Of a stretch of DNA of 64,000 nucleotides, positions 12,935 to 62,731 are shown in pieces. The notes beneath the pieces are model-generated. The model searched no databases. It was given only the letters and a program-made list of their open reading frames with translations, and had not been told where the DNA came from. Origin of the DNA: a virus; IMG/VR virus record IMGVR_UViG_3300031951_000015, positions 110,668 to 174,667 of that record, one strand, 5' to 3'. The position numbers and the translations under genes were made by a program. The first letter of the stretch is position 1, and each line of letters opens with the position of its first letter.

Positions 12935-12948
12935 TTAATATTTATCAT

Positions 12949-12972
12949 AAAAAAAGAGGGGTAGAACCCCTC
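12949..12972 (-). terminator. intrinsic terminator
   Basis: GAGGGG-TTCTA-CCCCTC followed by T7. Confidence 0.85.
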
Positions 12973-12978
12973 AGTTTA

Positions 12979-22172: not shown

Positions 22173-22727
22173 TCAACTATTTATTGCTTGATGGTCTGGA
22201 AGTTTAGGAAGTAAATCAAACGCAATGATTGTTCTTTGTTTTCTCGATTGATTGGGATGAACGAAGTGTAAAGTATAAGAAGGAACAATAAACAGTGTTC
22301 CTTCTTTTACATCTTGTGGATGTGCAAGAGTTGTTGTATCAGTTCTCGGATCTTGCCAAGGTGCTACAAAGCAAGTAGGAGTATGATGTTTCGAATCATA
22401 CTCCACATAAAGAACACCAGAGAATCCCCAACTTTTATGGTTGTGAACTGTCTGATGATCTCCTTGTTTATATCTCACTGCCCAACAATCAGTCATACTA
22501 CAAGTTACTTGTGCTTCCTGACAGAACTCAAACAGTTGAGGTCTGATGAGGTCTTGGAAGTAATGTAGGTATGACTTTTTATTTGTTTGGCGATCAGTCT
22601 CAAAAGTTTGAAGAGTGGTTCTTACAAACTTTTGAGAGTTGATTCTGTTGAGAAGTCCACGGCGCTTAAAGTCCCAGTCGTCTATTTGGTATTGGTATGA
22701 TGGATATTCAAAGAGTGGTGCTTTCAT
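22173..22727 (-). CDS. putative 2OG-Fe(II) oxygenase
   Basis: W...Y..GDHQ.VHNH, FSGVLY, PS..LH.V.P, R..IAFD; start at ATGA overlap. Confidence 0.8.
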   Translation of the reverse strand: MKAPLFEYPSYQYQIDDWDFKRRGLLNRINSQKFVRTTLQTFETDRQTNKKSYLHYFQDLIRPQLFEFCQEAQVTCSMTDCWAVRYKQGDHQTVHNHKSWGFSGVLYVEYDSKHHTPTCFVAPWQDPRTDTTTLAHPQDVKEGTLFIVPSYTLHFVHPNQSRKQRTIIAFDLLPKLPDHQAINS

Positions 22728-23515
22728 ACTGGCAATCTCCAACCACGATGATGATCTACTTCAAATCTTGATAATCTTTGCATCTGTCTTTTACTCAATC
22801 CAAAATCTTTACAATGTTCATCAATATCATCAACTTTTACAATATTATTATCTGGCGATAAGAAATAATAAGTTTTCAATCTTGCTTTTCGGCATAACTC
22901 CCTTTGCTCATCGCTCATAATCAAGTTTGGTCTAATCGTATTTGTTATTTTAGCAGTCCAACCTTTATAATGATTTCTCTTTCCCATACAAACATAACAC
23001 ATAGTAGGGTTGTGTAAGTTATGTTCTAAACAAAAACTTTTCAAACTTTGAGTAATATATTCTTTACCATTTGGATCTGTAATCAAATATTCATAAACAA
23101 ACTTTGTTTTTCGCATCTTATCAACGTGTTCTTTTTTGGATTTCACACCACGACACCTATCACCAACAGCATTACCAACTCTTATTTTTAATCCTTCATA
23201 AAGACGTGAGTTGCAATAATATTCTTTATCACCACTTTTATGATGATTCATTTTCCAAAAAGCGTGAGTCATCTTTATTGTTTTTGGATGCTTTTCTCCA
23301 TACCTTTTGATAAATGCTTTTTCTAATAGAGAGTGAGCAATATAATGTTCTCTGGCAGTCAAATATACAATCCTTTTGTTCCCTTCTGTTGTCTGCCCAT
23401 AAAGAGATCTTGGAAAAACGTGATGTCCTTCCACATACATTTTCACATTTCTTTTGTTGTAACCTCTTTTCTCTGCGTTTCGTATAAGGTTACAGTAAGT
23501 CCTTAGGTAGTTCAT
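22724..23515 (-). mobile_element. free-standing HNH homing endonuclease
   Basis: MNY...Y..LI..A..R, EGHHVFPRS, LTAREHYIAH.LL; C-terminal FC.EH.L...HYKGW repeats. Confidence 0.88.
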
Positions 23516-23550
23516 AACTGCTCTTTGGTTGGTGACGTACTATTTATGCA

Positions 23551-23605
23551 AGAAAAGGGCACCAGAGCGCCCCATTCTACCTGAAATGTGTCACCAACCC
23601 AGGCA
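23551..23605 (-). ncRNA. putative small RNA complementary to the HNH endonuclease leader
   Basis: Late-type promoter CTAAATA (23616..23610), CCTG-GGTTGGTGACACATTT-CAGG, terminator GGGCGC/GTGCCC-TTTTCTT; GGTTGGTGAC complements GTCACCAACC at 23536..23527. Confidence 0.6.
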
Positions 23606-23617
23606 CTTATATTTAGG

Positions 23618-24346
23618 TCACCGGGCACGGTCCCAGGCGCAATGTGCCCTCTGCCCATCTTGTAACACGTAGTGAAAAAATATTTGATGGTAGTACAACT
23701 GTTCTTGATTTTTACCAAATAGTTTTTTACCTTTTCTATTAAGTCCTGGCATTGGATCACGCCAATGAGGTCTGGAACAACCTTTATAAACCATTCCATC
23801 ACCAGGTTTCAGAATCACTGAACGATTCTCACCAGGAACTAATACCTGTGTCTTCTTTTTATCTGCATAAGTATCTGGTGTTTTAATCCAGATCGGCCAG
23901 TCAGCATCTTCACCAGTTAGATTAGTGCTGATATGAACCGTTACAGAAATCTCACAAGCATCACGATCTGCGTGACGGGTAAGTTCTTGTCCTGGGAAAT
24001 AATAACGATCATAATAATAGGTATTATAAAGTTTACGTCCCAATACTTCTTCCAGTTTCATACGAATACCACAATGGATTTGGCGATATTGTGGATGCCA
24101 ATAACGAGCAAGAGAACCTTCAACTTGCATCTCAACTTCATGATGGGTGAACTGATCCATCTTTTTACCCCACCAGTTCAGTTGTCCACGCTCTTGTGGA
24201 ACTGGATGATAGAGTTCCTCAGGATTCCACAAGTCTTTAATAACTAGATATCCATTCTTTTCAAAGGATTCGTTGTGAGTCCAGGCAGTACCTGTATTCA
24301 TCCTTTCCTGCATCATCAGTTGCAGTTCTGTCATTTGTTCTGCCAT
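23618..24346 (-). CDS. 2OG-Fe(II) oxygenase-like protein
   Basis: L..H.DR..CEISVT, L.PGD..VY.GC...HWR, QIFFHYV. Confidence 0.85.
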   Translation of the reverse strand: MAEQMTELQLMMQERMNTGTAWTHNESFEKNGYLVIKDLWNPEELYHPVPQERGQLNWWGKKMDQFTHHEVEMQVEGSLARYWHPQYRQIHCGIRMKLEEVLGRKLYNTYYYDRYYFPGQELTRHADRDACEISVTVHISTNLTGEDADWPIWIKTPDTYADKKKTQVLVPGENRSVILKPGDGMVYKGCSRPHWRDPMPGLNRKGKKLFGKNQEQLYYHQIFFHYVLQDGQRAHCAWDRAR

Positions 24347-42458: not shown

Positions 42459-42560
42459 AGTAAGACCATCAGGGAAATGGTGGAGTTACTATTCCCCAGT
42501 CACCCTCAGACTGGGTATGAGAGACGTTCTTATACACCCATAGGTCTCGGTTAACGGGTG
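42459..42560 (-). ncRNA. PhotoRC-II-like structured psbA leader
   Basis: GAGAC/GTCTC, CCCAGTC/GACTGGG and ACCAT/ATGGT stems with GAGGG and TCCCT loop sequences; position 5' of phage psbA. Confidence 0.7.
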
Positions 42561-42606
42561 TTTAACAATGTAACGAATTATGAGAGATCCGTAACATTTG
42601 TTTACC

Positions 42607-59864: not shown

Positions 59865-60012
59865 GGTCTTTCATGCACGCCACCAATTCTTTAACTGGAA
59901 ATTGGAAACCAGGCGGGAGAGAGTCCCATCCGCACCACCAATCCTTGAGAGAGATTGGAAACTCATAACAGGGTCATTTTGACTCCACCACTTGGTTTTA
60001 CGAAACCAAGAA
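59865..60012 (-). ncRNA. wcaG/manA-like structured RNA (3' part)
   Basis: Three TTTC-stem-TGG units with pseudoknot-compatible pairings (GAG/CTC+CAAT/ATTG; CTGG/CCAG+CAATT/AATTG), GCGG/CCGC hairpin; upstream of gmd-fcl. Confidence 0.65.
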
Positions 60013-60789: not shown

Positions 60790-60861
60790 TCGGAGTGACA
60801 GGGATCGAACCTGCGACTTTCTCATCCCAAATGAGACGCGCTACCTCTGCGCTACACTCCG
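60790..60861 (-). tRNA. tRNA-Pro(UGG)
   Basis: Cloverleaf, TCTCA-TT-TGG-GA-TGAGA, GGTTCGATCC; promoter TTGACA-17-TATAAT at 60920..60892; CCA not encoded. Confidence 0.95.
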
Positions 60862-61823: not shown

Positions 61824-61906
61824 CGGAGAGAACAGGAATCGAACCTGCGAAGCTTTTAAACCCAGCCGCTTTCAAGGCGGTGTCCTCGACCAACCGGACT
61901 CTCTCC
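61824..61906 (-). tRNA. tRNA-Ser(UGA)
   Basis: GGAGAGA acceptor, anticodon loop CTTGAAA, long variable arm, GGTTCGATTCC. Confidence 0.9.
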
Positions 61907-62659: not shown

Positions 62660-62731
62660 TGGGCAATATCGGATTCGAACCAATGACCGTCTGCGTGTAA
62701 AGCAGCTGCGCTACCGCTGCGCCAATCGCCC
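62660..62731 (-). tRNA. tRNA-Val(UAC)
   Basis: CTGC-TT-TAC-AC-GCAG, GGTTCGAATCC. Confidence 0.95.

Follow-up and report, generated by a model that had tools for sequence, protein, structure and literature searches.

How a phage restrains a free-standing homing endonuclease so that it does not harm its carrier is poorly understood, and a 2010 review of T4 treats this as an open area. The question is raised here by the gene of an HNH endonuclease in a stretch of 64,000 nucleotides (nt) of viral DNA (hereafter the window; positions 110,668 to 174,667 of the IMG/VR record IMGVR_UViG_3300031951_000015) and by the roughly 105 bases that precede it on the minus strand. These contain, in order, a distal late-promoter-type box (P1), a hairpin (hairpin 1), an intrinsic terminator, a proximal late-promoter box (P2), a leader complementary to the 5' arm and loop of the hairpin, and the endonuclease ATG (Table 1). 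We refer to this arrangement as a cassette and to the one at this locus as copy 2, two others (copies 1 and A) being present in the same genome. We propose that the cassette is a portable control module of the homing-endonuclease gene that may act in two ways, by silencing read-through transcripts in cis and by releasing an RNA of about 55 nt that titrates P2 transcripts in trans, and we give this reading a probability of about one half.

All elements that the original prediction had listed for this site (the boxes, the hairpin, the terminator, the 10-nt complement and the spacing to the ATG) were confirmed base for base on the minus strand, which also carries the neighbouring genes. The terminator was called independently by a terminator scan (7 pairs, five of them G-C, with a T-rich tail). 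Within the window, GGTTGGTGAC and its exact complement are present at the anti-leader and the leader only. The predicted 10 of 10 pairing with the leader was borne out and turned out to be longer: G23604-C23520 and the C-G, C-G and U-A pairs that follow bring the helix to about 14 pairs, carrying it through the 5' stem of hairpin 1 to the C of AAAGAGC, in a register that is one base off that of the wider family. The further claim, that the architecture is repeated with loop and leader changing together, held for copies 1 and A and then for a family of 85 cassettes.

This family was collected with a 21-nt string covering the terminator tail and P2 of copy 2, which was found in 115 IMG/VR stretches and led to 81 distinct cassettes; with copy 1, copy A and two relatives of copy 1, 85 cassettes were aligned. 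Most are from cyanophage-like IMG/VR contigs and six are from the isolate phage S-SRM01. The layout (box, 5 nt, hairpin 1, terminator, box, leader, ATG) is identical in 85/85, and P2 lies between the two complementary arms in every one. The open reading frames (ORFs) downstream belong to at least five endonuclease groups, namely three with GIY-YIG-like N-termini, a small PF01844 HNH group and an MNYL... HNH group that includes the endonuclease of copy 2.

The arm/leader helix of the family comprises 16 column pairs, joining nt 1-17 after P1 with the leader after P2, and is 94.8% paired over the 85 cassettes, as against 27-43% after a shift of the partner by 1-3 columns. Compensatory double changes are found in 13 of the 16 pairs (274 cells), and 0 of 500 shuffles was as good; the pair list was derived from the same alignment on which it was tested, the margin being nevertheless very large. 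Mean duplex energy is -20.7 kcal/mol for cognate arms and leaders and -9.8 kcal/mol for clearly non-cognate ones. Because 13 of the 16 pairs show compensatory change and cognate duplexes are the stronger, the pairing is real, and the alignment indicates that complementarity to the leader is kept by selection. Covariation reaches both predicted +1 nucleotides, where only purine transitions occur (A-U/G-C; C-G/U-A), and internal pairs show transversions; potential pairs one step beyond +1 are invariant and hence uninformative. An extension of the helix into the P1 box and spacer and the AUG region, proposed by RNAduplex, lies in invariant columns without covariation and was taken as fortuitous A/U pairing.

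The upstream arm has a competing partner. Hairpin 1 occurs in 35 distinct sequences in the family, all of which fold, in 82 of the 85 cassettes from the first nucleotide after the 5-nt spacer, and its stem covaries with the 3' partner (CCUG/CAGG, GCUU/AAGC, GCUC/GAGU, CCUA/UAGG, CCUU/AAGG). Arm nt 3, 5 and 7 covary with both their 3'-stem and their leader partners; the arm therefore has two alternative partners, both under selection. The terminator stem covaries as well, and the invariant parts of the family are the two promoter boxes and the terminator. RNAalifold applied to the 55-nt RNA recovered the terminator alone; MAFFT misaligns the variable hairpin, and hairpin 1 was therefore analysed sequence by sequence.

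An inverted repeat keeps its complementarity as DNA too, and a short CCTG/CAGG stem is common to all three copies in the genome, so that the element could be imagined as a cruciform, a recombination or nuclease site, or a scaffold bound by a common factor, the last being what the original prediction had inferred. We consider a DNA-level or protein-read element very unlikely. The stem sequence of the supposed scaffold varies freely across the family and is kept only by compensatory change, which contradicts the common-factor claim; bulges are tolerated; G.U exceeds A.C on the sense strand (33 versus 7), as expected for a sense-strand RNA; and the arms begin at the predicted transcript starts. 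Outside the promoter boxes and the terminator the family conserves neither an Rfam motif nor one for protein binding, and a search of positions 23450-23680 for a curated RNA family in Rfam 15 gave chance-level matches only (14 bits, E about 3).

A chance origin of the complementarity in AT-rich intergenic DNA has in its favour that 18-nt cassette seeds, when G.U is allowed, find complements of 12-17 base pairs (bp) genome-wide. The position of the complements speaks against it. When the whole genome was scanned with a regular expression for pairs of late-type boxes that lie 40-85 nt from each other and precede an ATG, exactly three tandem-box units were found, copies 2, 1 and A, each before an endonuclease gene and each (3/3) with position-specific complementarity. 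The longest perfect complement of the leader in the upstream 67 nt is only 3-7 nt in 58 of the genome's 62 late-box-to-ATG contexts, the exceptions being copy 2 (10 nt), copy 1 (8), copy A (11) and the leader of a fourth endonuclease (12). With the covariation over 85 cassettes and no shuffle as good, the chance reading is refuted and its probability is negligible. Copy 1 carries an extra terminator (GAGGGGTTCTACCCCTC, then a T run) directly upstream of its P1, at window 12947-12975 on the minus strand, which shields this unit on both sides from transcription coming from upstream.

Whether the cassette can release a separate RNA depends on P1. The search pattern left P1 unconstrained; its TAAATA is invariant in 85/85 cassettes, amid variation in the two preceding bases, the following spacer and everything upstream. 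A second, unbiased set was chosen solely by homology to one endonuclease family and gave 50 unique upstream regions, in which P1 and P2 are both present in 44, P2 and complementarity occur without P1 (and with a different hairpin type) in two, and no cassette is present in four. The P1 TAAATA is thus found in 44 of 46 cassettes of this set and kept in all 44 that have both boxes, in which P2 is the consensus TATAAATA in 40/44 and P1 in just 6/44. The sixth nucleotide after the box, at which T4 late transcripts start, is a purine in 81/81 cassettes for P1 and 80/81 for P2 (44/44 and 43/44 in the unbiased set). Within this genome the N[A/C]TAAATA octamers cluster at 8-45 nt upstream of ORFs (NATAAATA, 39 of 66 occurrences; NCTAAATA, 11 of 21; TT/TG/AG/AT-TAAATA, 1 of 72), and CTAAATA is therefore a plausible promoter variant. 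NCTAAATA, mostly as TCTAAATA, appears to be a second late-promoter variant. From these patterns we infer that P1 is a real promoter, with the predicted activity and transcript ends; at the level of sequence, it and a terminator 55 nt downstream would bound a short non-coding transcript of their own.

With its start placed by the T4 late-promoter rule and its end by the terminator, this RNA of about 55 nt is predicted to fold into two hairpins (-25.4 kcal/mol, z = -3.6). In the 92-nt read-through RNA a long-range helix is predicted around the terminator (-38.2 kcal/mol, z = -4.7), and this helix forms in the minimum-energy fold of all three genome copies. The predicted 5' end of the late messenger RNA (mRNA) is unstructured by itself (-4.1 kcal/mol, z = +0.65). 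In copy 2 the presence of the upstream arm raises the predicted cost of opening the region -14..+4 around the AUG from 2.2 to 7.1 kcal/mol; the average goes from 4.3 to 11.7 kcal/mol (mean rise 7.35), and the rise exceeds 2 kcal/mol in 80/81 cassettes. Depending on class, the duplex ends 2-12 nt before the AUG, with 2 nt left in classes that read ...AAAGCAG-AUG; in copy 2 it covers AAAGAGC and leaves 5 nt. Repression rather than activation would be expected, because the pairing abuts or covers the ribosome-landing region. The leaders have a weak Shine-Dalgarno sequence or none, and the likely effect is therefore the loss of a single-stranded landing region.

The dual mode would then work as follows. 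P1 would start an RNA of about 55 nt at the predicted +1, composed of hairpin 1 and the intrinsic terminator, while P2, a consensus-type box directly after the terminator, would start the endonuclease mRNA, whose first 17 nt or so can pair with nt 1-15/17 of the small RNA (the 5' stem and loop of hairpin 1). The loop and the free 5' end of the mRNA would make the first contact; the growing helix would then push out the 3' strand of the hairpin and come to a halt before the AUG, so that the duplex would occlude the ribosome-landing region and lower translation of the nuclease. The identical pairing could take place in cis on transcripts that read through the terminator, coming from the upstream gene or from P1; efficient translation would be expected from free P2 transcripts only, and the terminated RNA would additionally titrate these in trans.

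The same duplex might act positively or on the fate of the RNA, for example if the small RNA, once paired, capped the 5' end of the mRNA against 5'-end-dependent decay, or if an RNase III processing site were created. Every cassette has its target at the extreme 5' end of the predicted mRNA, and in copy 2 the AUG and the 5 nt before it stay free in a mRNA 5' end that is otherwise unstructured. We regard this as improbable, since in many family members only 2 nt separate the duplex from the AUG, the upstream arm adds 7 kcal/mol on average to the predicted opening cost, and the characterised controls of phage homing endonucleases are all negative (PMC2988022).

A minority possibility of real weight is a cis-only translational mask as in T4 I-TevI and segB and in Aeh1 mobE, in which the arm silences read-through transcripts and nothing else; with P2 between the arms, late transcripts lack the mask, and the distal box is inactive or its terminated product without function. 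This mechanism is published for T-even endonuclease genes (PMC2988022) and was applied by Dassa et al. (2009) to TATAAATA-containing hairpins at cyanophage-like endonucleases (PMC2677866). It is consistent with the long-range helix of the read-through RNA in the three copies and with the increased opening cost in 80/81 cassettes. A classical version is present in the same genome, at the fourth endonuclease, where an arm (TAAGTCTTGGCG) lies in the loop of a GCAAC/GTTGC hairpin, then TATAAATA follows and the other arm (CGCCAAGACTTA) stops 2 nt before the ATG, without a distal box and without a U tract. Leaders homologous to it were seen at two IMG/VR loci (L145, L158). In the homologous leader of S-SRM01 (L125) a TAAATA box and a U tract are both present.

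A cis-only mask leaves unexplained why TAAATA should be invariant 5 nt before the arm (85/85; 44/46) across unrelated upstream contexts, why the predicted +1, which is the first paired base of hairpin 1, should constantly be a purine, and why the competing 3' strand of hairpin 1 should be conserved by covariation. In copy 1 and several relatives, moreover, a terminator already stands upstream of P1, leaving little read-through to mask except that of P1 itself.

Against the dual mode it has to be said that everything except P1 is explained equally well by a cis-only mask. The fourth endonuclease presents its arm in a loop without a distal box, so loop presentation alone is no proof of a separate RNA. 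Both promoters are late, and synthesis of a trans repressor would coincide with that of its target; no published transcript map for these cassettes was found in the literature. In copy 2 the AUG lies outside the duplex, and the leader offers no strong Shine-Dalgarno sequence that could be masked. The chance complements that the seeds find in the genome are as good as the cognate site, and specificity in trans would therefore need position and accessibility. Among cassettes that reside together (in this genome, the six of S-SRM01, and L008, L035 and L062), 0 of 42 ordered pairs are cross-reactive compared with 11.8% in the pool, a difference that leans towards the dual mode but is weak (p about 0.07) and confounded by ancestry. 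For copies 1, A and 2, cross-pairing of one RNA with another leader is predicted to reach -10.8 kcal/mol at best, and cognate pairs -19 to -23 kcal/mol. The stronger claim, that each cassette encodes its own late trans repressor RNA of about 55 nt whose loop and 5' stem pair with the mRNA 5' end, so that dozens of orthogonal small RNA/leader pairs would exist across at least five families, may hold at slightly less than even odds.

Further matches to the loops, which the original prediction had proposed to look for, gave no significant second target when the three seeds were searched in the phage genome. The best extra match of the copy 2 seed has 17 bp (14 Watson-Crick and 3 G.U) and lies inside a coding region on the minus strand near genome position 22152; it is equalled by 2.7% of shuffled seeds and is not significant over three seeds.

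By family membership, the gene that starts at 23515 is a MobE-like HNH free-standing homing endonuclease, and site-specific cleavage and homing are predicted for it. Its protein matches phrog_655 (homing endonuclease, 1e-20) and phrog_2081 (HNH endonuclease, 8e-17), contains an ...EGHHVFP... motif in its N-terminus and has a weak I-HmuI NUMOD-like match below the Pfam cut-off; tblastn relates it to homing endonucleases adjoining nrdA in T4-like phages (about 27% identity). Peptide patterns retrieved no homologues in IMG/VR, and these were reached instead through the DNA pattern of the terminator tail and P2. One of them (L054) is 53% identical over 113 amino acids (aa) of the catalytic N-terminus. 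L054 and a homologue in S-SRM01 (L127) encode NUMOD3 and each carry a cassette, that of L054 with a different arm/leader pair; the absence of the element from homologous endonucleases, which the original prediction had named as a refutation, was thus not what we found. Near and distant DNA searches of isolate phages found S-SRM01 alone. Its six cassettes have arm/leader pairs that are all different, and the endonucleases downstream are mostly labelled hypothetical. In IMG/VR contig 3300007735_000887 (L008:29-49), an A-run replaces the distal box, and the hairpin arm and leader are of different classes and mismatched; this looks like a recombinant or decaying copy.

The genome (174,667 bp, 36.7% G+C) is assigned to a cyanomyovirus because of its wcaG and PhotoRC-II RNAs, its many 2OG-Fe(II) oxygenases and its best protein matches, which are to Synechococcus phages. 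Matches above the Rfam gathering score in the window are a wcaG RNA (101 bits), a PhotoRC-II RNA (79 bits) and three tRNAs, as is typical of cyanomyoviruses. Genes for 2OG-Fe(II)-oxygenase-like proteins flank the HNH gene on both sides. The 3' end of the HNH ORF shares 19 nt (window 22724-22742) with the TTG, a putative start, of the downstream 2OG-Fe(II)-oxygenase-like ORF (22173-22742), which resembles overlaps reported for endonuclease cassettes by Dassa et al. 2009 (PMC2677866).

Table 1. Features of the copy 2 cassette and of related elements; positions are those of the window unless another sequence is named.
Feature	Position	Strand	Remark
Copy 2 cassette	23617-23513	minus	
Stop codon TGA of upstream 242-aa gene	23620-23618	minus	
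P1, distal late-promoter-type box CCTAAATA	23617-23610	minus	CTAAATA part 23616-23610
Spacer from P1 to hairpin 1			5 nt; CTAAATA to CCTG, 6 nt
Hairpin 1, GCCTG-GGTTGGTGACACATTT-CAGGT	23604-23579	minus	GCCUGGG...UUUCAGGU as RNA; begins at predicted +1
Hairpin 1, CCTG	23603-23600	minus	
Hairpin 1, loop GGTTGGTGACACATTT	23599-23584	minus	
Hairpin 1, CAGG	23583-23580	minus	
Anti-leader GCCTGGGTTGGTGAC	23604-23590	minus	5' stem and 5' part of hairpin 1 loop; partner 23536-23520
Linker of hairpin 1 and terminator			short, purine
Intrinsic terminator, stem-loop GGGGCGC-TCTG-GTGCCCT	23573-23556	minus	then TTTCTT to 23550
Predicted RNA of about 55 nt	23604-23550	minus	hairpin 1 and terminator hairpin; sixth nt after P1 to end of U tract
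P2, proximal late-promoter box CATAAATA	23548-23541	minus	predicted driver of endonuclease mRNA
Leader core GTCACCAACC	23536-23527	minus	after P2 and GTAC; followed by AAAGAGCAGTT
Leader target	23536-23520	minus	core and AAAGAGC extension; predicted late mRNA 5' end; stops 5 nt before AUG
Endonuclease ATG	23515	minus	25 nt past P2
MobE-like HNH homing endonuclease gene, 263 aa	22724-23515	minus	phrog_655, phrog_2081
Copy 1 cassette	12946-12848	minus	same layout, different complementary pair
Copy 1, P1 GATAAATA	12946-12939	minus	
Copy 1, anti-leader GGACCGCA	12926-12919	minus	followed by terminator
Copy 1, P2 TATAAATA	12880-12873	minus	
Copy 1, leader TGCGGTCC	12868-12861	minus	
Copy 1, ATG	12847	minus	
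Copy 1 endonuclease gene, 208 aa	12221-12847	minus	phrog_314 homing endonuclease match; NUMOD3 motif
Copy A cassette	genome 66459-66355		outside the window; same layout, own complementary pair
Fourth homing endonuclease (starts MKVSQHPLYHTWNGMIRRC...), locus L128	genome 76040-76240	minus	outside the window; leader at 76120
Six cassettes of S-SRM01	MW015081.1: 48435, 51249, 55961, 62408, 77561, 192423	forward	
Rfam-matched RNAs	59869-59966, 42481-42573, 60790-60861, 62660-62731, 61824-61906	minus	

In cyanomyoviruses the control region travels as a compact module that can be attached to unrelated nuclease genes and changes its specificity through paired mutations. Should the small RNA be made, it would to our knowledge be the first regulatory RNA encoded by a phage and dedicated to a selfish gene, and the family would offer a ready-made set of orthogonal RNA-RNA switches. 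If it is not made, the family would still be the best-documented case of covariation for a T4-type leader mask, extended to a long-range helix that contains a terminator. Annotation pipelines leave such cassettes unannotated, the six copies in S-SRM01 among them.

The geometry of the pairing is like that of IS10 RNA-OUT and RNA-IN, for which, in work attributed to Kittle, Simons & Kleckner (1989), the 5' end of the mRNA reportedly pairs with the loop of a stem-loop RNA, spreads down the 5' stem and blocks ribosome binding. RNA-OUT is said to be a true opposite-strand antisense transcript with 35 nt of obligatory complementarity, in which a G/C-rich 5'-terminal nucleus is most conserved; the conserved 5' nucleus here is GCGA in most cassettes. 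The cassette RNA would differ in being encoded upstream in tandem on the same (minus) strand rather than on the opposite one, so that it may work like the IS10 class without being a member of it. Its 15-17 nt of complementarity, given this same-strand origin, must therefore be kept by selection.

In the type I toxin-antitoxin pairs TisB/IstR-1 and ZorO/OrzO, a separately encoded small RNA pairs with about 18-20 nt of the 5' untranslated region (UTR) of the toxin gene, in a pair-specific manner. The likeness lies in a short RNA that is encoded beside a potentially toxic gene and would limit its translation by 5' UTR pairing. Those small RNAs are divergent and host-encoded and act on standby or processing sites, whereas the cassette is tandem, phage-late and tied to homing endonucleases.

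Closer are the leaders of T4 I-TevI, I-TevII, I-TevIII and segB and of Aeh1 mobE, in which a stable structure masks the ribosome-binding site on early and middle transcripts and an embedded late promoter gives translatable late transcripts (PMC2988022). The promoter embedded in these T-even hairpins is late or middle (Gott 1988; Gibb & Edgell 2007, 2009; reviewed in PMC2988022). The cassette shares with those leaders the pairing of the endonuclease leader with an arm further upstream, the late promoter situated between the two, and the negative sense in which the selfish nuclease would be controlled. It departs from them in that its arms are separated by about 55 nt, including a complete intrinsic terminator. 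Its upstream arm belongs to a conserved hairpin, of which it forms the 5' half and whose first nucleotide is the predicted +1 of a second, invariant box. The downstream arm occupies the 5' end of the mRNA without reaching the AUG, whereas the T-even arm centres on the Shine-Dalgarno sequence and AUG. Four features thus go beyond the T-even precedent, P1 at a fixed 5 nt, a purine start that is the first paired base of hairpin 1, a terminator between P1 and P2, and a leader arm at the mRNA 5' end, and together they define a promoter-to-terminator unit.

The nearest relatives in cyanophages are those of Dassa et al. (2009), who described TATAAATA-containing hairpins, with a pair of complementary motifs, that precede free-standing endonucleases in the 'fractured gene' loci of cyanophage-like marine metagenomes (PMC2677866). 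Those hairpins share with the cassette the cyanophage-type endonuclease 5' UTRs, the motifs complementary across a late-promoter box, the occurrence with several host genes and endonuclease types and the translational reading, and they are likely identical with it. They were presented there as single hairpins acting in cis, and the distal promoter, internal terminator, competing hairpin and systematic covariation are not reported in the text of that paper (PMC2677866). In Rfam and the searchable literature, which covers few subscription journals, we found no description of the tandem-promoter/terminator unit, the competing hairpin, family-wide covariation or attachment to at least five nuclease families. 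The masking principle was thus already known, as were, since 2009, the hairpins at cyanophage-like endonucleases; what appears to be new is the tandem promoter and terminator unit, which is predicted to release an RNA of about 55 nt able to act in trans.

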